Positions 14,388 through 56,947 of a DNA stretch of 64,000 nt are shown piece after piece (position 1 is the first letter of the stretch; every line of letters starts with the position of its first letter). The translations under genes were made by a program, and so were the position numbers. The notes under the pieces were generated by a model. The model ran no database searches. It was not told the DNA's origin and saw only the letters and a list, made by a program, of their open reading frames with translations. The stretch comes from Syntrophorhabdaceae bacterium (lineage in GTDB: Bacteria; Desulfobacterota; Syntrophorhabdia; Syntrophorhabdales; Syntrophorhabdaceae). The stretch covers positions 576,001 through 640,000 of the forward strand of contig OY762209.1 in the NCBI GenBank assembly GCA_963665295.1, written 5' to 3'.

Positions 14388-17300
14388 ATGGTAGGGGTCA
14401 TTGAATTATTTAAAGGACCGACCCCGATACCCTTACGGCCAGCCTCAAACGGAGGACAGGAAGACAAATTGTCTGAGGAATTTAGTCAATCGGGTTGGGA
14501 TAAACTGAATGCTCGTTTTGCAGAACGAACTCGATGGGCCAATCTGTCAGTAACTATCGAAGAGATCGCAAAAGAAAACAGGTCACTTATCGAGAGCCTT
14601 AATAGGTTCGATCCAAAGTTTGCCATTCCCCTCCTGGCAAGCCTTCTAACACTCCCAAAATACCAATCGCATTGTATCCGCTTTGAAATTCTGGTTGTTC
14701 TAGCGATAATCCACTGCCGCGGCAGGAAAAAGGCGAGTCTAAATGAACCGATTCGCTGGTTCTCTCAGATAGGCGAGTCGCAATGCGTGTTAGGTGAAGA
14801 TCCTGCCGAAGATGTCTTTGTTTCTCTGGTGAGGGATGGCAAAGGAGACTACCGGCTTCTTCAAGGTATCTGGGAGTCCGCAGGTTTCTATACTCAATGT
14901 GTCTTGGACGCAATTGAGACCATGCCCAACACCGGCCAGTATGAGCAAATCAAGAAGAGCATCCGTGCTCTTCTCATAATATCCGATATAGTATGCAAGA
15001 AAGCCGGTCTCTCTCGCTATCAACTGGGTTCCGATGAGCGCTATTCAACGTTATCACCGCAGGCACTTCCGGGACGTAATGCCCTAATCTCTCGCGTGAC
15101 AATTACGTTCACGGAGTTGGATGAATACGGCATTACTCCCACCGATATCTTGCCGTTTACCTTTCATCCTGAGATGCGAAACGAATTGCCTATGCAACAA
15201 ATTGGCCTTAGTTACTTGCATCGCTGTCCGCTCATCGTGCACGATGAGCCTCGTCTCACGGTCGCCCTCCCTTCAGCCCTGTCGGTAGCAATTCGGGACT
15301 ATGCGATCGCAAATGTCATAGAAAGCGGACTGACTGAAACTTTTGATGATGCGCTTGCTCAGAATTACTCCAGACTATTCTTCGATACACCTCTCCTTGG
15401 CGGTCCAACGCGAGCCCCGGTCTTCTGGGAAAAGTCAGGTACATTCCAATGGTCGAATTTCTCCCTAAGAGTCGATGAAGGCTACTTCATCTCGTTCCAC
15501 GTGGTCCTACCGTCAGTGCAGATGCATCCCGATGGTGGCTTCAAGGGCGTCTATCGAGATGGAGGAAATCTGGCCAAAACGCTGCAATCTTCGATCAATG
15601 GGGTTGTCAAGCATTTCCAAGGGCAGAACGATTTCAAAGAGGGACTTGTTGTTCTCGTACTCTGCGGCTGGGGTAAAGGTTATACTACCCAAGTTGTCAA
15701 ACTCGCTGACCCGCATTGGCGCTTGGAAACCATGTCCTCAGCGGATCTCGTACGACTCAGTTGGCTTGGTGACATGAGTCCCAGCTACTTCTGGCGCATT
15801 CAAGACGGGTTGGAAGCCGTAAGGAAGGCTGGGGTCGAGATCGTCAATCCCAATGGGATTCTGAACCTGATCGGATGGGTACGCAGCAACAACGGCCACT
15901 TCGTGCCGCATGCACAGCTACCAGAAGGCGAGATTTCCCCAGAACGGCCCCTAATACTCAACCTCCCTCTCAACCTTCTGCGGGAAGTGCGCGCTGATTC
16001 CGATCGCGGTTATGACCGACACAGCGTGGTGGATAACGTTGGAGTTCAGCACGACGTCCAACACGTCTCGCCCAAGCCATTTTTCAGCAGCGGAAGCTCG
16101 CGACGTGTCTATGCCTCCATGGACGACATCGAAAAGGGAACGCATACGTCAGTGTATGAAGGCTCACTCAAGCTTTGGATCTCACTGACCGCGCGCAACT
16201 TCTCAGAAATAGAAGTCGAATCCCGGCTGTGGGAAATGGCAAATGAATGGCTCCGCCGCGTCGGCGATGCCCTCGATAAACGGTACGGTGCGATAATCGA
16301 GACGCGTAATCTCAAGGCCTATGTTGAATTCCATGACGATGACATACCAAAGGAAGGAGGAGATAAACCAGCTTTCGAAGATCTTCTTCCCTGTTGTATA
16401 ATAGAGCCTCACAGCGAGCCTAATGCTTGTAAAGCTGTCTTCCAAGCCGGGTTCGTAGCTGGCTTTCGCATCGCCGAGAATGTTGCCGAGCGACTCTTCG
16501 TCCGCACTGTGGCGCGGGCCTATTTGCATCTCCTCGGTATAGAAGATTGCGATGGTGAGGCCAAGGCCGTTGAGGCCCTTGTCGTTCCAAATGACGACGC
16601 GCGTAGCTTCCATCTCGTTTACGCGCAACAATTCATGGACTACGTTCGCGATACTTTGCCCAAAAAGCTAATCGCTATCGATCCGGTAGATGATGCCGCC
16701 AGCAAGATAGGCCTTGGTTGGCGTGTCCTTGAAAGAAACCAAAGCAACAAGATCGAAGGAAAAGATGCTTGTACAAGCTTTCTTCGTAAAATAGTTGATG
16801 TCTTGCTGACTGAAATTTTCGTCGCACTTCAATCGTTTAGCCGGCTTTCAGCGCTGATGCGCCTTGTGGCCAATTCTGAAAAAGCAAATGACGAGGCGTA
16901 CCATTGGGGGCGGACATCAGCAGCTCTCCTTGGTCTCCATGGCAACGAGCCAGGCACCGTCGATCGCTATGTCGAGCAGATGTCGAAGTTTGCTGGAGCC
17001 AATGTCGCAAGCCGTATTCTGATTGAGATCGGCTTATGTGTCTGTCCGGCAGGGGGAGGGACCCAACTCTCGGATATCGAGCTAAGCAAGTTGATCGCGC
17101 AGGCTGCCTTGGTAGTACGTATTGGTGGTCTCTCGGACGCGATATATTATAACGCGCTCGCCCCGGAACTCACTATTTCGCCTTTGGGTGACATCCTCTT
17201 TCGCAATGATTTTGGCCTCATGGTGGTCGAACCTATGCTGGCCCGCGAGATGGAGAACAGGTTTATCGGTAGTGCCCCCTTGCAGAGGAAGAATTATGAA

Positions 17301-18257
17301 GAACCCCCACTCGCTTCGAACGCCAAAGGCAATGTAGGAGAAGAATTCTGGGATGCATGGAAAATCGAGATGGGTTTTAATCTTGACGAAGGCCGAAACA
17401 TTATTGATGCTCTGGAAAACAAAGGCATTGAGGATCACGCTGCCTTATTAAAGATCCGGCAAAGCGAGTATCTAACTCTTGTCTGTTCCGACAAGGTTCC
17501 CGAAGACGCAGCGAGAAGATTTCTTAATCAGTTTTCGCTATCCACGAGGCCGCAGTGGGATAAACCTCCTGAGGGCTTCATCGGCAGAGATCTTTACCCG
17601 TGGCGCTATGGCCGGCGTTTATCCTTTGCAACTCGCCCTATTCTAATGTTAGATGAGACCGATGATCCCTTGCTGATTGTGGCGCCGGGTGCCCTGCGAA
17701 AGGGTTTCGCTTACGTTTTGGACGGTGCCTATAGTGGTCGACTTGAGCGGGCCTTCTTTCGCACCAATGAAATGAGGGATGCCTGGTTGGGGAAAGCACG
17801 GGAAGGTCACACCTTCAACGCTGAGGTTGGGAAGGCTCTATCAGAGGCCGGATGGCACGTCCGGGAGAATGTTGGCTTGCCCGAGCTTCTCAATCGCAAG
17901 ATTGAACGCAACTATGGAGATATTGATGTGCTTGCATGGCGACCGGATCGCGAAGAGGTATTGGTTGTTGAGTGTAAAGATTTGTCATTGGCGCGCAACT
18001 ATTCCGAGATAGCGGCTCTGCTTTCAGAGTATCAAGGCATCGAAGCGGAAGGCAGATCAGATAAGCTAAAAAAACACCTCGACCGGGTGGCGCATCTCCG
18101 CGATAATTCTGACGAACTTAAGCGATTTACGGGACTTCAAAGGCTACAGGTCATATCTTGCCTCGTGTGCAGTGGCGTGGTCCCTATGCAATATGCAAAG
18201 ATAGGCACCATCACAAATACCCGCGTCGGCAGAGTCTCCGATATTCTGAACCTCTAG
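14388..18257 (+). CDS. Large (1289 aa) protein with a C-terminal PD-(D/E)xK (NERD/REase-like) nuclease domain; candidate defence protein
   Basis: GHTFNAEV...YGDIDVLAW...VLVVECKD...KHLDR at the C-terminus; AT-richer than the flanks; TTGACA-17-GAGAAT at 14325-14353. Confidence 0.75.
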   Translation: MVGVIELFKGPTPIPLRPASNGGQEDKLSEEFSQSGWDKLNARFAERTRWANLSVTIEEIAKENRSLIESLNRFDPKFAIPLLASLLTLPKYQSHCIRFEILVVLAIIHCRGRKKASLNEPIRWFSQIGESQCVLGEDPAEDVFVSLVRDGKGDYRLLQGIWESAGFYTQCVLDAIETMPNTGQYEQIKKSIRALLIISDIVCKKAGLSRYQLGSDERYSTLSPQALPGRNALISRVTITFTELDEYGITPTDILPFTFHPEMRNELPMQQIGLSYLHRCPLIVHDEPRLTVALPSALSVAIRDYAIANVIESGLTETFDDALAQNYSRLFFDTPLLGGPTRAPVFWEKSGTFQWSNFSLRVDEGYFISFHVVLPSVQMHPDGGFKGVYRDGGNLAKTLQSSINGVVKHFQGQNDFKEGLVVLVLCGWGKGYTTQVVKLADPHWRLETMSSADLVRLSWLGDMSPSYFWRIQDGLEAVRKAGVEIVNPNGILNLIGWVRSNNGHFVPHAQLPEGEISPERPLILNLPLNLLREVRADSDRGYDRHSVVDNVGVQHDVQHVSPKPFFSSGSSRRVYASMDDIEKGTHTSVYEGSLKLWISLTARNFSEIEVESRLWEMANEWLRRVGDALDKRYGAIIETRNLKAYVEFHDDDIPKEGGDKPAFEDLLPCCIIEPHSEPNACKAVFQAGFVAGFRIAENVAERLFVRTVARAYLHLLGIEDCDGEAKAVEALVVPNDDARSFHLVYAQQFMDYVRDTLPKKLIAIDPVDDAASKIGLGWRVLERNQSNKIEGKDACTSFLRKIVDVLLTEIFVALQSFSRLSALMRLVANSEKANDEAYHWGRTSAALLGLHGNEPGTVDRYVEQMSKFAGANVASRILIEIGLCVCPAGGGTQLSDIELSKLIAQAALVVRIGGLSDAIYYNALAPELTISPLGDILFRNDFGLMVVEPMLAREMENRFIGSAPLQRKNYEEPPLASNAKGNVGEEFWDAWKIEMGFNLDEGRNIIDALENKGIEDHAALLKIRQSEYLTLVCSDKVPEDAARRFLNQFSLSTRPQWDKPPEGFIGRDLYPWRYGRRLSFATRPILMLDETDDPLLIVAPGALRKGFAYVLDGAYSGRLERAFFRTNEMRDAWLGKAREGHTFNAEVGKALSEAGWHVRENVGLPELLNRKIERNYGDIDVLAWRPDREEVLVVECKDLSLARNYSEIAALLSEYQGIEAEGRSDKLKKHLDRVAHLRDNSDELKRFTGLQRLQVISCLVCSGVVPMQYAKIGTITNTRVGRVSDILNL

Positions 18258-18660
18258 CTTAATTGCAGCCCCGGGCGCAATCTTTAGTTTACCGACCTCG
18301 TCGTAACTTCCGTACTGATCAGGTATTGTTTCTTACTTACGACAGTTCTCATGCTCAGCCACCAAGATAGTGGGCTGATGAAGGGTGCGCCACCGATGCC
18401 TACGCAGGCTCGATGACGCTTTCTATGCGTAATCTTCGGTTGCACCGCCATAGCCTCTTACCGCTTTGCAGGTGCACGGGCCTATTTTCGGTGTCGGCTC
18501 ATTTTGAAGAATTCGCTCAGAGGGCTCGTGCTGATGTACTTCCTGAAAGAGATTCTTTCCCTTGCTGCCCAGCATGAAAGGTTACAAGTGGTATTTATCG
18601 AGCAATTGCTGCATGCAACATAACATCGCTCTGCCGATGATATGTTGCAAATAGGCGAGG

Positions 18661-19801
18661 CTAGTGTACTGTCTCACTAATAGCTTTACAATTACCCTTG
18701 GCTATGCTATCATAGTGCATGTGGAATCCAGCCAGTACGCTAGACATGACGGAAGAGCGGAGAAAGACATTGGAAACATGGGTCAAAGCAAAGAAGACTC
18801 CCCAAAGGGTGGTTCTACGCTCCCGCATCTGCCTGCTCGCGGCAGAAGGGATGTCCCATAACGCCATAGTGAAGAGGCTCAATACCTCCCGCCCTACGGT
18901 GATATTGTGGGTAGGCAGGTTCAAAGAACAAGGTCCCTCGGGCTTATCAGAGGACGCACCCCATGGGCCGAGTTCAAGGCGCCTTAACCCGGAGATAGTG
19001 CGCACCATCGTGGAAGCCACACTCCATACAACTCCCAAAGATGCTACTCAGTGGTCCACCCGCACCATGGCAAAGGAGAAGGGCGTGAGCCATGCCACCG
19101 TGCAGCGCATCTGGGATGCCCATGGACTACAGCCCCATCGGGTAGAAACTTTCAAGCTGTCCAGAGACAAGAAGTTCGTGGAGAAACTGACCGATGTGGT
19201 GGGCGTCTATCTCAATCCTCCCGACAAAGCGGTGGTACTCTGTGTGGATGAGAAAAGCCAGGTGCAGGCCCTGGACCGGACCCAGCCGGGATTACCGATG
19301 AAGAAGGGGCGCTGCGGCACGATGACCCACGACTACAAAAGGAACGGCACTACCTGTCTTTTTGCCGCCCTCAATGTTCTGGAAGGAAAAGTCATAGGCT
19401 CCTGCTATCCCCGCCACAGAAATACCGAATTTCTTAAGTTCCTGCGTACCATAGACCGTCAGGTGCCAAAGGGCCTCGATGTCCATATGATTCTCGACAA
19501 CTACGGAACTCATACCCACCCCAATGTGAAAGCATGGCTCGAAAAACACCCCCGTTTCGTTCCCCACTTTACACCCACAAGCTCGTCGTGGCTTAACCTG
19601 GTGGAGCGCTGGTTCGGGGAGATCACACGAAAGAGAATTCGTCGCGGCATCTTCAAAAGCGTTCAGGAACTGGTGACCGCCATCGAAGAATATATTCGCT
19701 GCAACAACGAAGACCCCAAACCCTTCGTATGGACCAGGAAGGCCGAGGAGATACTTGAAAAAGTGAATCGCTGTAAAGGCGTTACTGAGACACTACACTA
19801 G
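18661..19801 (+). mobile_element. IS630-family insertion sequence, apparently intact
   Basis: Ends CTAGTGTACTGTCTCACTAA / TTACTGAGACACTACACTAG (18/20 inverted match including the flanking CTAG); TA at both ends. Confidence 0.95.
18719..19801 (+). CDS. IS630 transposase
   Basis: HTH plus DDE: CVDEKSQVQAL, THDYKRNGTT, ILDNYGTH, SSWLNLVERWF. Confidence 0.97.
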   Translation: MWNPASTLDMTEERRKTLETWVKAKKTPQRVVLRSRICLLAAEGMSHNAIVKRLNTSRPTVILWVGRFKEQGPSGLSEDAPHGPSSRRLNPEIVRTIVEATLHTTPKDATQWSTRTMAKEKGVSHATVQRIWDAHGLQPHRVETFKLSRDKKFVEKLTDVVGVYLNPPDKAVVLCVDEKSQVQALDRTQPGLPMKKGRCGTMTHDYKRNGTTCLFAALNVLEGKVIGSCYPRHRNTEFLKFLRTIDRQVPKGLDVHMILDNYGTHTHPNVKAWLEKHPRFVPHFTPTSSSWLNLVERWFGEITRKRIRRGIFKSVQELVTAIEEYIRCNNEDPKPFVWTRKAEEILEKVNRCKGVTETLH

Positions 19802-19872
19802 ACTCCTGTCGTAGCGGATTGTATCTCTTTGATTTCTTACGGAATATTCTTCAAGGTCCGATCCTTTATCTG

Positions 19873-19901
19873 TTGACATTCTCTCCACCAAATACTAAGA
19901 T
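19873..19901 (+). promoter_or_regulatory. Near-consensus sigma70 promoter facing the cassette array (Pc-like)
   Basis: TTGACA-17nt-TAAGAT about 30 bp upstream of the GTTAGGC core. Confidence 0.7.
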
Positions 19902-19920
19902 TTCCACAAATTACATACTG

Positions 19921-19940
19921 CGGTAGATTAATTGTTAGGC
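19921..19940 (+). other. attI-like site (core GTTAGGC at 19934-19940)
   Basis: GTTRRRY core exactly complementary to GCCTAAC of the next attC; not preceded by an attC hairpin. Confidence 0.6.
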
Positions 19941-19958
19941 GCAAGCATGTAGGAACCA

Positions 19959-20243
19959 ATGAAGGCTAAGATTGACGCACTGCAAGTCACCAGTCAACCG
20001 CTCACCGGCAATTGTTCGGGGGTATATTTCTTATTCGATGAACACGAATTGGTCTACGTCGGTCAGGGCTGGAATTGTTTCTTGCGTGTGGCCGAGCATA
20101 CGAGAAGGGATTCAGACAAAATCTTCACGAATTGGAACTTCATCAAAATTAAAAGTGAAAAAGAAAGAAAACAATTTGAACAAGAAGTAATAAACAGATT
20201 CAAGCCCAAATATAACAAGGTCCATATGGGAGACGGTTCATGA
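19959..20243 (+). CDS. GIY-YIG nuclease (cassette 1)
   Basis: SGVYFLF...VYVGQG...RVAEH...FEQEVINRFKPKYN. Confidence 0.88.
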   Translation: MKAKIDALQVTSQPLTGNCSGVYFLFDEHELVYVGQGWNCFLRVAEHTRRDSDKIFTNWNFIKIKSEKERKQFEQEVINRFKPKYNKVHMGDGS

Positions 20244-20434
20244 TTAACACCGGCAAGGCGTGTTCAATCTGTGGTAAGTGGCACCGTTTAGAAGAATATA
20301 CATACGGCAACCGAGAGAACAGATCTTACTGCAAGACATGCAACAAAGAAGAAAAGAAGGCATATGGAAAAGGCGGCGCACAAGCAGCTAGAGAATATAG
20401 AGAAAATGAAAGAAGTAAATGGAAAAGGGCCTAA
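20240..20434 (+). CDS. Small zinc-finger protein (cassette 1)
   Basis: CSIC...CKTC; ATGA overlap with the GIY-YIG gene; stop codon lies inside the attC inverse core. Confidence 0.7.
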   Translation: MINTGKACSICGKWHRLEEYTYGNRENRSYCKTCNKEEKKAYGKGGAQAAREYRENERSKWKRA

Positions 20435-20489
20435 CAATCGGCTGCACCGAATCCAGGCTATGCCCGTCTCGGTGAGCCGCATGTTAGCT
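20429..20489 (+). other. Integron attC site
   Basis: GCCTAAC ... CGGCT(G)CACCGA / TCGGTGAGCCG stem with an extrahelical base ... GTTAGCT; 61 bp. Confidence 0.9.
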
Positions 20490-20517
20490 CCACAAAGATG
20501 AAACTGAAGAGGCGACC

Positions 20518-21612
20518 ATGAAAGAAAATCTGATGAATGCGATCAAAGAAATTAGAAACGACGGTTCTCTGTTGATCTTGGATGAAGCATCAATCAAGTC
20601 GGCTATCATACTCCGCCTTCTTTCGTTGCTGGGGTGGAATCCTTTCGACATTAACCAAGTTAAACCCGAGTATACCGTAGAATCCAAACGGGTAGATTTC
20701 TCCTTAAGAATAAATGGTGCAAACAAGGCTTTCATAGAAGTGAAGCGACCGAGTGAAAACCTTGAGCCACATCAGGAACAGCTTCTGGGATACTCATTCA
20801 GGGAAGGAGTTAAGATCGCAATTCTAACAAACGGAGTTACCTGGTGGTTCTATCTCCCGTTAAACGAGGGCAGTTGGGAACAGCGACGATTCTTTACTGC
20901 TGATTTTACGGAACAACCACTCGAATCGATAGCTGACCGATTCATTGCTTTGCTGTCAAAAGATCATATCGCGACGGGTGACGCGGTAAAAAATGCCGAA
21001 GGCCTATATCAAAGTCGCCAAAGAAAAGGCATTCTGAAAGAAGCCTTGCCTAAGGCGTGGCATAAATTAATTAATGATCCAGACGATCTCTTGGTTGATC
21101 TCTTGATAGAAACCACCGAAAAACTGTCTGGGTTTCGCCCAGAAATAGAAGATGTTGAGAGATTCTTAGGCAGTATTGCCCATCCTGCATTTCCAAAGCC
21201 TGGAACCCCTCTTTCTCCCGCGCCTCCGAAGCCGTATCAACCCCCGAGGCCGGGAGTTTCTGAATCATCTACCGATGGCTATATCAACAAACAGATCGTG
21301 GCATTTACACTACTCGGAAAAACATATCGTCCTCGTAATTGGAAAGAACTTATGGTCACTGTCGCTGAGGAAATGTACCGGAGGCATCCTGCGGACTTTG
21401 AACGTGCGCTTATGCTTCGTGGTCCCAAGATGGCCTATTACGCACTTCATGCCAATCAATTGAGTCAACCATCACAAATTTCCGATTCGAAATACTTTGT
21501 AGAGACAAAACTGAACACAAACTCAATAGTAAGGCGATGCCACGGATTGCTGTCACTTTTCGGATATAGTGATACTGATTTAAGCATAGAGGTAGATGAA
21601 AAGAGAACATGA
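20518..21612 (+). CDS. HsdR_N-like PD-(D/E)xK nuclease fused to a SeqA-C-like domain (cassette 2)
   Basis: LLSLLGWN...PEY...RVDFSL...FIEVK...QLLGY...ILTNGVTW; Pro-rich linker; C-terminal RGPKMAYYA...KYFVETKLNTNSI. Confidence 0.8.
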   Translation: MKENLMNAIKEIRNDGSLLILDEASIKSAIILRLLSLLGWNPFDINQVKPEYTVESKRVDFSLRINGANKAFIEVKRPSENLEPHQEQLLGYSFREGVKIAILTNGVTWWFYLPLNEGSWEQRRFFTADFTEQPLESIADRFIALLSKDHIATGDAVKNAEGLYQSRQRKGILKEALPKAWHKLINDPDDLLVDLLIETTEKLSGFRPEIEDVERFLGSIAHPAFPKPGTPLSPAPPKPYQPPRPGVSESSTDGYINKQIVAFTLLGKTYRPRNWKELMVTVAEEMYRRHPADFERALMLRGPKMAYYALHANQLSQPSQISDSKYFVETKLNTNSIVRRCHGLLSLFGYSDTDLSIEVDEKRT

Positions 21613-21798: not shown

Positions 21799-22081
21799 TG
21801 CTTTTGTCATTATCTAACCCACTAACGAGATTACACTTATTTCCCGCGCGTTTGAGAGGGTTCTTTACGCAGTCCGGATATCGTACCTGTCACAGCTTTT
21901 TTGTGGTAATGGTGGACGGAAGGCAAAGCCCCCCTGTAGACTTGTGGAGCCAGCCCTCCCGGTGTTGCCCTGGACGTGCTATTCAGATCGCCACCGGCAG
22001 TTATCATTGTGGATTATCTTCCTTCCTGGTGCCAATTTCCCGGCATCCTCTATTTCAATAATTAATTATGCCGGGTCGTGT

Positions 22082-22219
22082 GGATGGCCGCAGGGGGTGA
22101 AGGCTTCAGGTTCGTTGCTCTGTGAAGGTTCGTGGGGCGTCGGCGTATTAAATATACGCCAGAGCACGCGTACCTTTGCAGAGCGGCGGAGATGGAGTCT
22201 TCACCCCCTGCGGCCATCC
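22082..22219 (+). other. Long structured hairpin element, copy A (candidate ncRNA or ssDNA element)
   Basis: 21-bp perfect closing stem extended by G.U pairs, nested stems, terminal GGCGTA/TACGCC hairpin; homologous to 41641-41779. Confidence 0.7.
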
Positions 22220-22398
22220 GTCCAAGTGAACATAAAGCCAAACAGACAACACAAACCGCGAACAGACGAGAGCCATCCCCGCAAAACCCCGACACTCTCC
22301 CTTCCTCTCTCCCGCTCACGCCCCACGCTCACGCCCCACGCTCACGCTCGGTTAATGCTTGACTCTCTTACTGCCCGCCGTGGTATCATAAGGACGCT

Positions 22399-23364
22399 AT
22401 GGGATTGACACACATTACCGACGGGCGGGTTAAGCTTATTATGGTCGGGGGGAAAGGCGGGGTGGGGAAGACTACCTGCGCGGCGGCCATTGCCCTGAAG
22501 ATCGCCATGGACGGGAAGAAGGTGCTTGTCATTTCCAGCGACCCCGCTCCCTCTCTGTCAGACATCTTCGAAGTCGCCATCGGCAATGACGAGGTGCGCA
22601 TTACCGGCGACTACGAGCTTTACGGCCTGGAAATCTCCTCCGACGCGGTGCTCAGGAAGTGGAAAGAGCGCTTCGGGCCCGAGATCTACGAGGTGGTCCG
22701 GTCCTTCGCGGACGTAGACTACGATTTCGTCGACTACATCGGGACCGCGCCCGGCATCGAAGAAGAGTACATGCTCAACTACATCATGGAACTCGTGCAG
22801 GGCGGCGCCTACGACGTGGTGGTATGGGACACGGCGCCCGCAGGGCACACCTTGCGCCTCCTCAGGCTCCCCCACCTCTTTCTCAAGCACATGGAAGCGG
22901 CCACGAAGTTCTACATGAACATATACGGCTACCTGGAGAAGCTGAAGGACACGGTGAAACTCAAGGGGTCGAAGAGAACGCTCCTCGAGGTGATCGGCAG
23001 CTGGGAGGCCCTTTCGGAACAGATCGTGGCCTTCATACGGGACCATGAGATCACCAAGTATGTAATCGTCACCATCCCCGAGGCCCTCGGCGTGAAGCTT
23101 ACCGAGAGGGTGATAAAAGAATTCGAGGAAAACCGGCTTACCGTGGAAAATATCATTATCAACCACGTGGTGAAGGACGCGGACTGCGAGTTCCACAGGA
23201 CACGCAAGGCCATGCAGGAGCACTACATGGGGTCGATCAGGGACACCTATAAGGGATCGAGTATCGTCACTCTCTACCTCGCGGCTAAGGAGATACGAGG
23301 CCTGGCAAGGATAATGGAGGTCTCGAAGGTCCTCTTTTCCCCGGAGGAAGGACCGGGGGCGTGA
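22399..23364 (+). CDS. ArsA/Get3-family ATPase (single domain)
   Basis: GGKGGVGKTT, SDPAPSLSD, DTAPAGHT. Confidence 0.92.
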   Translation: MGLTHITDGRVKLIMVGGKGGVGKTTCAAAIALKIAMDGKKVLVISSDPAPSLSDIFEVAIGNDEVRITGDYELYGLEISSDAVLRKWKERFGPEIYEVVRSFADVDYDFVDYIGTAPGIEEEYMLNYIMELVQGGAYDVVVWDTAPAGHTLRLLRLPHLFLKHMEAATKFYMNIYGYLEKLKDTVKLKGSKRTLLEVIGSWEALSEQIVAFIRDHEITKYVIVTIPEALGVKLTERVIKEFEENRLTVENIIINHVVKDADCEFHRTRKAMQEHYMGSIRDTYKGSSIVTLYLAAKEIRGLARIMEVSKVLFSPEEGPGA

Positions 23365-40981: not shown

Positions 40982-41641
40982 CACTACCAGAGGGAATGCA
41001 GGTCCGTTCTTGGTTTCCGGTCTGAATAGGCCTGTCTATGGAAGTATCTGAATTGAAGCATGGAACAGTGCAATGTTTGCCCCCGGCGACCTTTGTTCTT
41101 CTTAATGAAATCAATTGGAGCCGGGCGGAATGGATGGAAGATACCGGGAGGCACTACCAGAGGGAATGCAGGTCCGTTCTTGGTTTCCGGTCTGAATAGG
41201 CCTGTCTATGGAAGTATCTGAATTGAAGCATGGAACAGTGCAATGTTTGCCCCCGGCGACCTTTGTTCTTCTTAATGAAATCAATTGGAGCCGGGCGGAA
41301 TGGATGGAAGATACCGGGAGGCACTACCAGAGGGAATGCAGGTCCGTTCTTGGTTTCCGGTCTGAATAGGCCTGTCTATGGAAGTATCTGAATTGAAGCA
41401 TGGAACAGTGCAATGTTTGCCCCCGGCGACCTTTGTTCTTCTTAATGAAATCAATTGGAGCCGGGCGGAATGGATGGAAGATACCGGGAGGCACTACCAG
41501 AGGGAATGCAGGTCCGTTCTTGGTTTCCGGTCTGAATAGGCCTGTCTATGGAAGTATCTGAATTGAAGCATGGAACAGTGCAATGTTTGCCCCCGGCGAC
41601 CTTTGTTCTTCTTAATGAAATCAATTGGAGCCGGGCGGAAT
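40982..41641. repeat. Perfect tandem repeat, 170-bp unit, ~3.9 copies
   Basis: CACTACCAGAGGG... starts at 40982, 41152, 41322 and 41492; copies identical by eye; the last copy lacks 20 bp. Confidence 0.97.
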
Positions 41642-41779
41642 AGGCGGCCGCACGGGACGGACACTTCAGATAGGTCAGGCTGTGAAGGGAGGCTGGGCGT
41701 CGTCGTACTCAAGTACGACAGAGCACGCCTCCCTTTGCAGAGTGGCCTATATGGAGCGTTCGTTCTGTGCGGCCGCCTA
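41641..41779 (+). other. Long structured hairpin element, copy B
   Basis: TAGGCGGCCGCAC/GTGCGGCCGCCTA closing stem and nested stems; colinear with 22082-22219. Confidence 0.7.
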
Positions 41780-41980
41780 AGGACTTGCATTACGGAAGCA
41801 ACCTGCCCCATTTTAGCCCCCAACCCGCATTGCAGTTCCCCCTGCCGGGGACGGGCAAAAGACCACAACAAAACCCTTGATAATCTTGACGTTCTGAAGT
41901 AACTTTTCAAGGAGGTGTCACGTGCCGGGAGGTGCGCCGACACAATTATCTTAGCCGAAAGCGCACGCAGGGGGTTATCG

Positions 41981-43690
41981 ATGTTATTCTCCAAGATGTT
42001 TATTCCTACAATGAAAGAAGTCCCGAAAGAGGCCGAGGTAGTGAGCCACAAACTCATGCTCCGGGCCGGTTTCATCCGGCGCCTCGCATCGGGCATCTAC
42101 ACATGGCTGCCCCTGGGGCTCAGGTCCTTGCGAAAGGTCGAGAAGATCATACGGGAAGAGATGGACAAAAAGGGCGCCCAGGAGATCCTCATGCCCCTGG
42201 TCCAGCCCAAGGAACTCTGGGTCGAAAGCACGCGTTGGGAAAAGTACGGAAAGGAACTTCTCAGGTTCGTGGACAGGAACAACCGGGACATCTGCCTTGC
42301 CCCGACCCACGAAGAGGTCGTCACCGACCTCGTGAGACGGGAGGTGCGTTCATACAAGGAGCTTCCCTTGATCCTCTACCAGATACAGACAAAATTCCGG
42401 GATGAAATAAGGCCGCGCTTCGGCGTCATGCGGGGCAGGGAATTCACCATGAAGGACGCCTACAGCTTCGATATGGACGAGTCAGGGGCCGAGGCGAGCT
42501 ATCTCAACATGTACGACGCGTACATGAACATCTTCAAGCGCTGCGGCTTCAGCTTCAGGGCAGTGGAAGCCGACACGGGCCAGATCGGAGGGAGCTTCTC
42601 CCACGAATTCATGGTCCTCGCCGATACGGGAGAGGACATCATCATCTCCTGCAGCAACTGCGGCTATGCGGCAAACCTCGAAAGGGCCGAGATAGGGTTC
42701 GTGGAGCGTGAAACCTCACGGAAAAAAGGCGCCTTCAAGAGGGTCGAAACCCCCGGGAAGAAGAAGATCGACGACGTGGCGCAATTCCTCGGCGTTGCCC
42801 CGGACAAACTCGTGAAGACCCTCATCTACAATACGGACCAGGGCGTCCTGGGAGTGCTCGTCAAGGGCGACAGGGAGGTAAACGAGACGAAGCTCAGAAA
42901 CCTCATGGGTCTCGAATACATGGAACTGGCGGATGAAGAGACCATAGAGAAGGTCACGGGCGGTCCCCTCGGCTTCTCCGGGCCCATCGGCCTCAAGATC
43001 CCCCTCGTAGCGGATATGGACATCCTCTTCATGGAAGACTTCGTGGCAGGCGGAAACGAGAGGGACGTGCACGTAGTGGAGGTGAACGTGGAAGACTTCG
43101 CCGTGAAGGGCTTTTACGACCTCAAGACCGCCCAGCCGGGTGACCTCTGCCCGCGGTGCCGCGATAAGCACACTGCCACAAAGGGCATCGAGGTGGGCCA
43201 CATATTCAAACTGGGCCTCAAATACAGCAAGGCCATGAACGCCACCTTCCTCGACAACGGCGGGAAAGAACAATACATGGTAATGGGCTGTTACGGCATC
43301 GGCGTAAGCAGGACCGTGGCCGCGGCAATCGAGCAGGGACATGACGAGAACGGCATGGTCCTCCCCATCGCCATCGCCCCCTTCGAGGTAGACGTCCTGC
43401 CCGTGAACACATCCCATGCCGAGAGCATGGAACTGGCGAACCAGGTGTACAAAGCGCTCCTTGACAAGGGGATCGATGTGATCCTCGACGACAGGGACGA
43501 GAGGACGGGGGTCAAATTCAAGGACTGCGACCTCATAGGCATACCTGTCCGCGTCACCATAGGGGAACGGAACTTGAAGGACGGTTACGTGGAGATAAAA
43601 CTCCGGCGTGAAAAAGAGTCGGAGAGGGTAAAGAAGGAAGACGTAATAGAAAGGATTATTGCCCATGTTGAAGAGCTTAAACGCGTGTGA
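41981..43690 (+). CDS. proS: Proline--tRNA ligase
   Basis: SHKLMLRAG, PTHEE, KFRDEIRPRFG, GIEVGHIFKLG, MGCYGIG. Confidence 0.98.
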   Translation: MLFSKMFIPTMKEVPKEAEVVSHKLMLRAGFIRRLASGIYTWLPLGLRSLRKVEKIIREEMDKKGAQEILMPLVQPKELWVESTRWEKYGKELLRFVDRNNRDICLAPTHEEVVTDLVRREVRSYKELPLILYQIQTKFRDEIRPRFGVMRGREFTMKDAYSFDMDESGAEASYLNMYDAYMNIFKRCGFSFRAVEADTGQIGGSFSHEFMVLADTGEDIIISCSNCGYAANLERAEIGFVERETSRKKGAFKRVETPGKKKIDDVAQFLGVAPDKLVKTLIYNTDQGVLGVLVKGDREVNETKLRNLMGLEYMELADEETIEKVTGGPLGFSGPIGLKIPLVADMDILFMEDFVAGGNERDVHVVEVNVEDFAVKGFYDLKTAQPGDLCPRCRDKHTATKGIEVGHIFKLGLKYSKAMNATFLDNGGKEQYMVMGCYGIGVSRTVAAAIEQGHDENGMVLPIAIAPFEVDVLPVNTSHAESMELANQVYKALLDKGIDVILDDRDERTGVKFKDCDLIGIPVRVTIGERNLKDGYVEIKLRREKESERVKKEDVIERIIAHVEELKRV

Positions 43691-53554: not shown

Positions 53555-56500
53555 TCACCTGCAAGGGACAAAATGAACCACCCTTTTGGAATCATCAATA
53601 GTCTTCTTCAGGAGGTCCAGGGCCCTGGTGATGTCCTCCTCGGTATTTTCATACCCTAGTGAGAAGCGCAATGCGCAGTGGGCGTCCTCGCGGGAAAGGC
53701 CCATGGCGAGAAGGGCATGAGACGGGTCAGGGGACCCCGAACTGCAGGCGGAACCGGAGGATAGGTAGACGCCGTGCCGGCTCATGGCCATGACCACCGA
53801 TTCGCCGCGAAAACCGGGCAACGTCATGTTCAGGGTATTGGGGAGACGCTTCTCAGGGTGACCGTTGAGCCGCGCCCCTGTCACCAGCGTCCTGATCCCC
53901 TTCTCCAGGACGTCTCTCAGTCTCCTTACACCTTCCCCTTGCGCAAGAAGGCCCGGGACCATTTCCGCTGCCCTGCCGAACCCCGCGATGCCGATGGTGT
54001 TTTCAGTGCCCGCCCGGAGCCCCCCTTCGTGCTCACCGCCGCTCACCAGGCTTTCCAGTTCTACACCCTTGCGCACATAGAGAAGGCCCACGCCTTTTGG
54101 CCCATAGACCTTGTGGGCCGAAAGGGTGAGCATGTCGATACCCGAATCCTCCACGTCAACAGGGACCTTGCCGAGGGCTTGCGTGGCGTCCGAATGGAAG
54201 AGGATGCCACGCCCGCGGGCCAGATCCGCAATCTCCCCGACCGGCTGAAGGGAGCCCGTTTCATTGTTGGCCCACATAATGCTTATAAGAAAAGTCTCCC
54301 CCGTAATGGCTCGCTCCACCTCGGCCGGATCGACTATGCCATGTTCATCCACCCCAACAAAGGTCACATCATAGCCCATTTGGGCCAGCCACCCGCAGGT
54401 GTTCAAAACAGCGGGGTGCTCGATGCGGGAAGTGATAAGATGACGCTTTCCGTCCTTCCGGGCAAAGGCGGCGCCTTTGATGGCAAGGTTGTCCGACTCC
54501 GAGCCGCAGCCGGTGAAAATGATCCTCCGGGCCGTGCAGTTGATGGCGGACGCCACCTTGCGACGCGCTTCTTCGATTAGAATCCTGGACCTCTTTCCCG
54601 CCTCGTGGACGCTGGAGGGGTTCCCATACAGGTCCATCGCCTCCTTCATGGTCTGGGCCACTTCAGGCGCGAGGGGAGTGGTGGCGTTGTGGTCCATATA
54701 CACGGGGTCGGGCGCGTGGGCGTCGCTTTGAGGAGACCCGTAGTCTTCAGGCCCTTCGCCGGTCCCGATGACCACCCGGTCTCCCTCGTCCCCTGCCTTG
54801 ATCACGTCGCACAGGAGACACTTGTACACGGGGAAGCCCGAAATGGGGTCAGATTGGCTAAGATCGGTCAACTCGTTGATATTGCATTCCCGCCACGCCT
54901 TGGGAGCCACGGGACTCCCGCCCGCGTGGTCGGCGTCGATGAAACCCCGGGCGATGTCGTCGGTCACCAGGGCACGCATGCTCACCATGCCCCTGGGTGT
55001 GGCGACATGAACCTTGTCGCCGTCCTCGATGCCCCGATCCAGGGCATCTGCCGTATTGAGGGTAACCGCAGGCTCCGGGCGCTCCCTGACCAACGCGGGA
55101 ATGCCCCGGTGCTGGGTATGGAAGGCGGTTCTCACCCTTGCCCCGGAGTTGAAGACCAGCGGGTATTTGTCGAGGAGGTCCGGCCGTGACAGGGGCCCCT
55201 CCCTCGGCTCGGTATACACAGGGAGCGGGTCGTATCCGTATTCCTTGAGCATTGTGGAGGCAATTTCGAACTTGCCCGAAGGAGTGTCGAAACCGGGCGC
55301 TCCGTCCGGTCTCAGCAGGCCCTTTTCCCATTTGCGGTACTGCATCATGGGGGTCTCGATGGAGACCGATCCACCCGCGCTTCTCACGTCTTCAGGGGTA
55401 AAACCGGAACCCTTCAATACGTAGCGGAGCAGCTCCCCCTCGTTCTGGGGGTAGAGGTGGCCGTAACCCAGCCGTTGCGCAAGCTCCGCAAGGATGAAGA
55501 AATCGTTCCGTGCTTCACCGAGAGGCTCTATCATCCGTTCCCTGATCCTGAAAAGGGGTCCGTAGATCATGTACGATTCGATCTCATAGTATGTGGCAGC
55601 GGGCAGGACAATGTCCGCATAGGCGGCGTCGGCGGTGAACTGCCGGTCGATGCATACCTGAAAATCAAGGGCCCCGAGGGTCTTCTTCCAGAGTTCAGGG
55701 TTGGGCCACGACGTGATAAGGGAGCCTCCGAGTATGATAAGGGAGCGGATCTTATAGGGTGTCTCCTTGAGCACCGCGTCCGGCAGGGCGATGGCATGGG
55801 CCTCGTCGCGGTAGTGGACGTAAAGAGGATAGCGGTCCCTTCCCGGGCGGGGGTTGGCCACGGGGTTCTTGATCAGGCCCTCGCGGTTCACGGGAAAGCG
55901 GCTCCCGGACATGGAGAAACAAAGCCCGCCGGGAACATCTATCTGCCCTGCAAGGGCCCAGAGCACGAGGGTCGCCCGAATCCCCTGGACGCCGGTGGCA
56001 CTGAATTCCATACCCGTGTACATGAGCTGTGATACGCCCCGGGCGCCCGCTATCTCCCGGGCAAGGGAAACCACCGTGTCGGCGGGCACTCCCGTGATAT
56101 GCTCCACCACCTCCGGCCGGAAATGCTGCACATACCGGGAGAACTCTTCGAAGCCCACGGTCCAGTTCTCCACAAAGTGTTCGTCGTAAAGGTCTTCCTC
56201 GATCAGGACATTGCACATGCCCAGGGCCAACGCCCCGTCCGTGCCCGGCCGTATGGGGACCCACGTCGCGCCGGCCAGTTTGGCGGTCATAGTCTTCCGG
56301 GGATCGATCACCACGACCCTGGCGCCCCGTTCTTTCGCGGCGAGTATCCTCTTCATCTCGACTGGGGGAGAATCGGTGGCGGGGTTCGTGCCCCACACAA
56401 TCACCATCTCGGAGTTCTCCACGTCATTGAACATATTGATGAGCATGCGGCCGCACGTGAGATGGGGTGCGATCACACCGTAGGAAACATAACACAGGGC

Positions 56501-56947
56501 GCCTACCCCCATGGTGTTGGGCGACCCGTAGGGGAAAAGGACGCTGCTCGCCGACGAAACGGCTACTCCCGCGGGTTGGAAGACATCGCAGAGGGAAAGT
56601 TCGAAACTCCCCACGCCCGTATAGATGGCGGCTGCCTCGGGACCATACTCCTTCTTGATAAAGCTCAGCTTGTCTACAATGATCCCGTAGGCGTCGTCCC
56701 AACTTATGGGTTCAAAATCGTAGTCACCTTTATCTCCCTTCCTTCTCAAGGGATGGAGGAGGCGGCGCTCCGAATAGATGATGTCGGGAGAGTGTTCCCC
56801 CATGGGGCAGGTTATCCCCATGCCTGACCCTTCGTCGGGCCGGACATGAACGATCTTGCCGTCCCGGTCATACCCGGCGACAATCCAGCATCCCGCGCTG
56901 CATATGCCGCATATGCCTCTCTTCTCCCGCGCCCATGTTCCCGTCAT
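53555..56947 (-). CDS. Molybdo/tungstopterin oxidoreductase-cysteine desulfurase fusion (metallopterin-dependent ergothioneine synthase, MES-type)
   Basis: CGICSAGC Fe-S motif, WGTNP, IRPGTDGAL, ADIVLPA; C-terminal YMDHNATT, SAHKVYGPKG, SSGSACSS; 4 bp upstream of egtD. Confidence 0.88.
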   Translation of the reverse strand: MTGTWAREKRGICGICSAGCWIVAGYDRDGKIVHVRPDEGSGMGITCPMGEHSPDIIYSERRLLHPLRRKGDKGDYDFEPISWDDAYGIIVDKLSFIKKEYGPEAAAIYTGVGSFELSLCDVFQPAGVAVSSASSVLFPYGSPNTMGVGALCYVSYGVIAPHLTCGRMLINMFNDVENSEMVIVWGTNPATDSPPVEMKRILAAKERGARVVVIDPRKTMTAKLAGATWVPIRPGTDGALALGMCNVLIEEDLYDEHFVENWTVGFEEFSRYVQHFRPEVVEHITGVPADTVVSLAREIAGARGVSQLMYTGMEFSATGVQGIRATLVLWALAGQIDVPGGLCFSMSGSRFPVNREGLIKNPVANPRPGRDRYPLYVHYRDEAHAIALPDAVLKETPYKIRSLIILGGSLITSWPNPELWKKTLGALDFQVCIDRQFTADAAYADIVLPAATYYEIESYMIYGPLFRIRERMIEPLGEARNDFFILAELAQRLGYGHLYPQNEGELLRYVLKGSGFTPEDVRSAGGSVSIETPMMQYRKWEKGLLRPDGAPGFDTPSGKFEIASTMLKEYGYDPLPVYTEPREGPLSRPDLLDKYPLVFNSGARVRTAFHTQHRGIPALVRERPEPAVTLNTADALDRGIEDGDKVHVATPRGMVSMRALVTDDIARGFIDADHAGGSPVAPKAWRECNINELTDLSQSDPISGFPVYKCLLCDVIKAGDEGDRVVIGTGEGPEDYGSPQSDAHAPDPVYMDHNATTPLAPEVAQTMKEAMDLYGNPSSVHEAGKRSRILIEEARRKVASAINCTARRIIFTGCGSESDNLAIKGAAFARKDGKRHLITSRIEHPAVLNTCGWLAQMGYDVTFVGVDEHGIVDPAEVERAITGETFLISIMWANNETGSLQPVGEIADLARGRGILFHSDATQALGKVPVDVEDSGIDMLTLSAHKVYGPKGVGLLYVRKGVELESLVSGGEHEGGLRAGTENTIGIAGFGRAAEMVPGLLAQGEGVRRLRDVLEKGIRTLVTGARLNGHPEKRLPNTLNMTLPGFRGESVVMAMSRHGVYLSSGSACSSGSPDPSHALLAMGLSREDAHCALRFSLGYENTEEDITRALDLLKKTIDDSKRVVHFVPCR

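Follow-up and report, generated by a model that had tools for sequence, protein, structure and literature searches.

Two long hairpins that covary with one another, each lying upstream of housekeeping genes on the same 64,000-nt stretch of a Syntrophorhabdaceae genome (hereafter the window), raise the question of what the element is, how it spreads and what keeps its fold. The original prediction described two copies of an unrecognised element under selection and proposed either a multicopy ncRNA or an ssDNA hairpin of the REPIN/MITE type. The two copies and their surroundings are laid out as follows.

22039..22075, + strand: short hairpin of copy 1, with a CCCGGC stem and an AT-rich interior, the 5' module of the unit
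22076..22080, + strand: linker of copy 1, running into GTGG at the foot of the rod
22081..22220, + strand: rod of copy 1, ~140 nt, covarying, interrupted by tandem-GA internal loops and closed by the family apex CGTA-loop-TACG
22221..22260, + strand: tail of copy 1, A/C-rich, with a ragged end and without terminal inverted repeat (TIR)
22359-22389: promoter-like TTGACT..TATCAT of the ArsA/GET3-type gene, also present in relatives without the element
22399..23364, + strand: ArsA/GET3-type ATPase gene, the first gene downstream of copy 1, outside the element
40982..41641, + strand: rod-less tandem array upstream of copy 2, 3.9 identical 170-bp repeats
41592..41635, + strand: short hairpin of copy 2
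41641..41779, + strand: rod of copy 2, ~139 nt, covarying
41780..41833, + strand: tail of copy 2, with 48 nt at 92% in common with the copy at genome 5.467 Mb
41984..43690, + strand: proS (start ATG), the first gene downstream of copy 2, outside the element

Re-alignment of the two rods returned all the shared blocks and the single 1-nt gap that had been described, and the four compensatory blocks quoted for the pair are correct (checked by eye). Each folds as a single rod on the + strand, at -112.5 kcal/mol for copy 1 (z = -13.2) and -105.3 kcal/mol for copy 2 (z = -14.7), with 0 of 200 shuffles equally stable; the - strand of both rods gives a fold ~23-29 kcal/mol weaker, in agreement with the + strand being the folded one. 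The CCCGGC..GCCGGG hairpins at 22039-22075 and 41592-41635 were also present as described. They do precede the rods, but they are not separate from the element, since a short hairpin stands ahead of all 27 rods of the genome (see below). The initial bases of the copy 1 tail are similar to the tail of a TIR-bounded form found in relatives. Upstream of copy 2, each repeat of the tandem array consists of the unit's 5' flank and the short hairpin, the rod being absent; the array begins 23 nt past the stop codon of a tungstate ABC ATPase gene and may be a genuine amplification or an assembly effect.

The distance to the genes had been given as ~180-200 bp, and the downstream starts indeed lie at 180 nt from copy 1 (followed by the ArsA-type ATPase gene, rsmD and coaD, in this order) and at 205 nt from copy 2. 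The promoter-like sequences downstream of both copies are native, as they occur in relatives that do not carry the element, and since the copies lie upstream of them, neither is in the leader of its downstream gene. Placement before housekeeping operons is common, but it is not a rule: by a crude ORF call, the first downstream ORF is co-oriented for 16 of the 27 copies. A small defence island (14388-21612), composed of a Upx-like anti-phage gene (1825 bits, slightly below the cut-off), an IS630 transposase and an HSDR_N-domain gene, stops 430 nt ahead of copy 1.

The number of copies had been underestimated: BLAST and an iterated HMM found not two but 27 copies in the genome (28 HMM rows, two of them the halves of one copy with an apical insertion), all copies of a ~190-nt unit made of a short CCGG hairpin followed by a ~140-nt rod, and all intergenic on ORF maps. 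They form 17 singles and five head-to-head pairs, and one such pair recurs at three loci. One pair member is split by an IS630 that separates the short hairpin from most of the rod, and one single copy has a ~75-nt apical insertion. At ten further sites the short hairpin is kept and the rod lost; rod deletions between short repeats were seen, as was repetition of the unit's 5' part, in tandem or as direct repeats. At L004:1057-2686 (genome ~970-972 kb), an ORF and a DNA methylase gene lie between direct repeats of the 5' part, and the rod follows the second repeat only. Six shorter hairpins, of the broad family described below or intermediate in form, coexist with the long form in the genome (265.7, 815.6, 1838.6, 1999.2, 3889.9 and 5052.9 kb).

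The claim that the structure is under selection on one strand withstood the larger alignment, which comprised all copies but the two interrupted ones, 25 in total. There, 97.5% of 1398 cells are paired and 35 of 56 pairs carry two-sided changes; 0 of 500 shuffles scored as high (a result that is no probability, because the copies share descent), and slid pairings were only 38-51% paired. G·T/T·G cells outnumber A·C/C·A cells by 218:13, so that wobbles fall 17:1 toward one strand. At fixed columns, bulges, tandem-GA loops and some wobbles vary little or not at all; the apical loop is variable, and no RNA tetraloop was found in the genome's copies.

A model built from this genome's copies (R1) extended the search for homologues to relatives, 18 of 40 of which gave matches (9 of 24 in the same family, 9 of 11 in the sister family and 0 of 5 among others), with 1-51 matches per positive genome. 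In a phylum-wide sample with 20 candidates scored per genome, R1 matched at least 2 of 150 genomes, and the long form also occurs in records named Syntrophorhabdales, Syntrophorhabdaceae, Syntrophaceae and uncultured deltaproteobacteria. The two-hairpin architecture, the tandem-GA loops and the apex are kept across two families. The sites are not: none of five relatives has a copy upstream of proS, and the ArsA-rsmD-coaD site is empty in four of five, the fifth (G003) having an internally deleted copy. No empty-site joint was found among the contigs aligned to copy 1, and phage and plasmid collections gave no match to the element. The element is a dispersed repeat: it is multicopy, intergenic and patchy, its sites are not conserved and its covariation is strand-specific.

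No Rfam family matched in the window at the gathering threshold (the original prediction did not recognise the element as 6S, SRP or a riboswitch); the weak miRNA-precursor matches and the one sRNA match seen at E-value level all lie below or far below threshold. The description of the element as unrecognised thus stands for Rfam, but members of the wider family had already appeared in print in 2009, as uncharacterised elements of Geobacter metallireducens, where Gmet_R1001-R1024 are listed as 24 'predicted short RNA elements' (Aklujkar et al. 2009, PMC2700814). By eye, a broad family of hairpins matches the opposite strand of Gmet_R1001-1024 as given in supplement S4 of that paper (PMC2700814). 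Like the present element, the Geobacter sequences are intergenic, multicopy imperfect palindromes with the same apex and flanking motifs on the opposite strand (again by eye); unlike it, they are ~113 nt long and are given without the extra stem and without the upstream short hairpin. For the window copies, the similarity runs through the relatives and the broad family rather than through a direct significant match. The Gmet-type apex and CAGATG-type tandem-GA motifs occur on one strand in the rods of relatives and are degenerate in the copies of this genome (G000).

A search with the apex motif, which returned at least 121 stretches, revealed intergenic hairpins in Bdellovibrio, Acidobacteriota, Bacillota and other groups, with several differing outer ends and an apex kept across phyla; pattern matches on viral contigs were mostly due to chance, a minority being true broad-family copies. 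A second model (R2) was made of 34 broad-family members picked by the apex pattern and holds only 9 pairs. All six rods of two G007 loci are recovered with R2 (E 1.3e-7 to 5.3e-4). On the window copies it gives an apex-only match that is not significant (E 0.14-0.38) and is circular, since the members were picked by their apex, and nhmmer found no bridge between the broad family and the window copies. In global alignments, the G000 copies fit the broad family better forward than reverse-complemented in 26 of 26 cases, and the broad family fits 11 ERIC copies of E. coli K-12 better forward in 45 of 46. Direct similarity to ERIC, whose consensus measures 127 bp, exceeds the shuffle level in only 2 of 26 copies of this genome, R2 has no match among the E. 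coli ERIC copies, and 0 of 25 copies have the ERIC-type TA at both termini. The ERIC/IRU elements, as far as the sources cited describe them, resemble the present family in being one long imperfect stem-loop of similar size, dispersed and without a known transposase, in being prone to internal deletion and insertion, and in having reported RNA-level effects on neighbours (PMC3184786, PMC10969869, PMC2267715); they differ in that the window's family has an extra 5' hairpin, no TA flanks and no direct similarity. From these comparisons, we take the element to be a long variant of a cross-phylum hairpin repeat known from Geobacter, with an indirect link to ERIC, and very probably a mobile hairpin repeat of this superfamily. 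No description of the long variant was found in the literature searched, with most subscription papers, ISfinder and the primary ERIC papers outside its scope.

How such a repeat may move is best seen in relatives. In G007, G020, G005, G224 and metagenome contigs, the two-hairpin core is enclosed in a ~370-bp unit bounded by 16-bp terminal inverted repeats. G007 has 67 occurrences of the end pattern, G020 has 45 and G005 has 17, against 0-5 control matches; in this genome it occurs twice, against two control matches. Among 38 full elements, 20 are flanked by an 8-bp duplication with at most one mismatch (12 perfect, 8 with one mismatch). Of 62 right ends, 48 have a Shine-Dalgarno-like motif starting 10-14 nt further out, against 0 of 60 left ends (all rows were kept in these counts, including a few false end calls and a few same-site repeats in related genomes), and the start codon usually lies 23-24 nt (range 20-25 nt) beyond the right end, in one orientation, so that the G·U strand of the rod is the message strand. 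A ~1-kb TIR-bounded version with a long non-coding insert was observed in G005, G021 and G224 (L421, L597 and L604); G021 and G224 are of different genera and share the insertion site. The predicted MITE type is thus borne out in the relatives, whose units have terminal inverted repeats and 8-bp duplications as well as a transposase family to match, but not for the window copies, where neither inverted repeats nor consistent duplications were seen. As the core is found in two families and the inverted ends in some genera only, the core is probably the older part, captured by, or inserted into, an end pair derived from an insertion sequence.

The matching transposase belongs to an autonomous element of ~1.8 kb whose ends match those of the MITE, found at L463 (on a Bacillota prophage contig, 470 aa) and at L439 (in G217, of the window's family). 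It encodes a ~470-aa zinc-finger DDE transposase, with IS6 as its best NCBIfam match (77.7 bits, below the cut-off of 125), and is flanked by 8-bp duplications, which are perfect in 5 of 6 plasmid copies. Harmer and Hall 2019 placed long IS6-like elements (ISHahy6, ISHco2 and ISTet2) in a clade VIII characterised by a size >1.7 kb, a zinc finger, a transposase of ~454 aa and an 8-bp duplication, and their account of this clade gives no experimental data and no target preference (PMC6807381). The partner element resembles clade VIII in size, zinc finger and duplication, a placement by description and not by sequence, and the likeness concerns the partner element of the relatives only, not the window copies. 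The end upstream of the transposase gene corresponds to the right end of the MITE, and in the five plasmid copies that have an annotated divergent gene upstream, this end lies 23-24 nt from the start codon in all five (two of the distances were counted by eye). Long IS6-like elements were observed on plasmids of Geobacillus, Levilactobacillus and Clostridium (L631, L632, L634, L635 and L636); in these and in L463, L439, L625 and L629, the transposase-upstream end lies 22-25 nt from the start codon of the divergent gene and ~10-13 nt from its Shine-Dalgarno sequence, a spacing that may itself reflect a targeting rule not yet described. None of the 14 loci with autonomous copies contains the rod; those of Geobacillus have a subterminal hairpin whose base resembles that of the short hairpin. 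Within the order, the transposase is present in 3 of 96 genomes, two of the genes being broken, and it is absent from this genome and from the fragmented assemblies of G007 and G020, the richest in the MITE. Other partners for the MITE did not hold: IS1 was found in 0 of 69 genomes, short IS6 (IS240-type) in 2 of 69, both of which turned out to be the long IS6-like element, and Mutator transposases are absent from G007 and G020. The nearest precedent found is the promoter-targeted insertion of Mutator-like elements of the TnGBS/ISLre2 group, described as occurring ~16 bp from sigma-A promoters (PMC3942029). In that group, the target is a sigma-A promoter and the enzyme a Mutator transposase; here they would be the Shine-Dalgarno/start codon region and an IS6-like transposase. 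No description of insertion targeted to ribosome-binding sites was found in the literature searched, with most subscription papers and ISfinder outside its scope.

Why, then, is the fold kept? DDE transposition needs no internal hairpin, so the fold must be kept by something else. We consider it an even matter whether the element is a non-coding two-hairpin repeat, passenger of mobile DNA, whose fold is kept for its action in co-transcribed messages; that the fold is read as RNA at all has, on this analysis, slightly less than an even chance. According to this proposal, an IS6-like transposase would move the MITE form in the relatives and the rod would then form a long helix in the mRNA leader, where the helix could make the insertion tolerable or be cut by a double-strand ribonuclease. 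Precedents at the RNA level are the reported cleavage of Correia repeats by RNase III and of Yersinia ERIC by RNase E (PMC10969869, PMC3184786). Two points favour a role in transcripts: these parallels with Correia and ERIC, and the insertion of the MITE form into leaders. The orientation of the rod inside the MITE may, however, go back to a single capture event, which makes its sense-strand position weak evidence for an RNA function. The window copies would represent the same core without the MITE ends; the results on spacing and on the transposase concern the relatives and not these two copies. It is tempting to go further and imagine that the transposase finds its targets through the ribosome-binding site and installs ~370-nt leaders, the rod being a branch of a superfamily with a common reader, but we hold this only as a tentative and rather doubtful idea. 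The cue could be initiating ribosomes, coupled transcription-translation or the Shine-Dalgarno DNA itself, and the scope would be dozens of genes in these anaerobes and, for one shared protein, a superfamily ranging from ERIC to Geobacter, Bdellovibrio and Acidobacteriota.

The main rival to a role in transcripts is that the fold is read on single-stranded DNA: an HUH nuclease or a tyrosine recombinase would recognise the hairpins and copy the core at replication forks, any RNA effect being incidental; we regard this as possible but unlikely. The replication-strand bias of the copies in this genome fits such a DNA-level reading at least as well as the RNA reading. With dnaA at 1.073 Mb, the leading-strand template carries the folding strand in 16 of the 17 singles (p 2.7e-4), and 8 of the 10 rod-less sites share this replication orientation (p 0.11); all sites fall within 0.66 of the origin-terminus distance (KS p 0.006, spotted post hoc). 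In the framework of the transcript proposal, this bias would reflect instability of the strongly folding strand on the lagging-strand template. With origins taken at dnaA, the same bias is seen in 21 of 23 broad-family copies of Bdellovibrio G187, and 17 of these hairpins lie inside a conjugative element; yet it is weak or absent in G188 (13/18), G189 (20/37) and G040 (5/13), and the strand bias of this genome is thus not general. The G187 hairpins (G187:C1:1,700,000-1,765,000, L371-L374) lie among short ORFs, 15 of the 17 on the same strand, and the ~70-kb element around them has relaxase-like, coupling-protein, TraG and integrase genes; they could be single-strand signals of that element.

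The ends of the copies also speak for a DNA-level process: they are ragged, no terminal inverted repeat is present in the window copies and no regular duplication is seen in this genome. The flanks of the genome's copies share a direct repeat of at least 8 nt in 7 of 26 cases, against 6.8% of mismatched controls, at inconsistent positions and without link to inverted repeats. As a point against the transcript reading, 0 of 27 copies have a Shine-Dalgarno motif within 45 nt. The head-to-head pairs and the repeats of the 5' part likewise speak for a DNA-level process, as does a GT(A/G)G at the foot of the rod in 18 of 25 copies (12 GTAG and 6 GTGG, by eye, partly paired within the stem), which recalls the GTAG tag ascribed to REPs (PMC3733652). 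The present elements share with REP/REPIN sequences their dispersed hairpins and inverted doublets; they differ by ~56 pairs against REP stems given as 6-13 bp, and by the absence of a linked RAYT (PMC3733652). The REPIN/RAYT type that had been proposed is not supported: the rod is present at 0 of 33 Y1-transposase loci, the presence of Y1 genes does not follow that of the element (15 of 19 positive genomes have them, and 14 of 22 negative ones), and the four RAYT-like genes of this genome bear ends of their own; RAYT/IS200 was rejected as the mover. A single rod locus among ~200 (L029) has a Y1 gene, ~300 nt upstream. The four RAYT-like genes (~320 aa, with short inverted ends; L021-L024, genome 825.8, 849.0, 860.5 and 1816.9 kb) are accompanied by a truncated one with its own ends at L013:4895-5680, and three of them lie after the same upstream sequence.

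The original prediction did not recognise the element as an attC, and indeed 0 of 25 copies have both R'' and R' boxes and the copies are dispersed. Over ~200 loci, no mobility enzyme lies consistently beside the rods, one integrase family being present at 3-5 loci, and clustering of the neighbouring ORFs gave mostly ordinary metabolic families. Defence or toxin-antitoxin genes stand on the 5' side of ~7 copies; capture of defence cassettes was considered, given that a methylase cassette sits between direct repeats of the 5' part, but neither a recombinase nor an array turned up and the idea was set aside. A multicopy ParB-like gene was rejected as partner because the rod lies within 1.5 kb at 6 of 30 of its loci and the gene is absent here. 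This gene (ParB_N + HTH, ~320 aa) has 36-41 copies per genome in G007, G012 and G020 (e.g. L058:1325-2293, L378-L407), which apparently consist of just a ribosome-binding site and an ORF, often beside 7-nt repeats.

That each copy would be the gene of a discrete ~190-nt protein-binding ncRNA with its own transcription is not favoured, and we judge it quite improbable: the architecture, tandem-GA loops and apex kept over two families, the invariant G·U pairs and the head-to-head pairs, which have no upstream gene for read-through, would suit such a gene, but a search for a conserved promoter or terminator at the unit gave no consensus above chance, close relatives have from 0 to ~50 matches at sites that are not conserved, the rod is often deleted or interrupted, the loop is variable and no Rfam family corresponds. 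Equally improbable, and already weakened, is the idea that the covariation is a by-product of template switching copying one arm to the other in a neutral palindrome whose fold no protein reads, for although long quasi-palindromes self-perfect and rod deletions between short repeats are seen, such a process should erase mismatches, and yet bulges, GA loops and G·T at fixed columns are (near-)invariant, wobbles favour one strand 17:1 and the apex is kept across phyla.

To our knowledge, the means by which ERIC-like repeats spread and the reason for the conservation of their fold have been open questions for three decades. The family to which the hairpins belong offers a tractable case: its natural covariation is strong, its MITE form is defined, and there is a candidate transposase, intact copies of which reside on plasmids of Geobacillus and lactic acid bacteria. 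The MITE and the autonomous element alike keep a fixed 23-25-nt spacing to the start codon, which points to targeting of ribosome-binding sites rather than of promoters. What is new here is the long variant and, for the relatives, the spacing of the MITE to ribosome-binding sites and the candidate transposase; the broad repeat family itself was known, if uncharacterised. The outcome for the two copies in the window is more modest: they are members of a dispersed repeat. Elsewhere in the window, at 53555-56947, we noted a 1130-aa protein that fuses a molybdopterin oxidoreductase domain to a NifS-type cysteine desulfurase.
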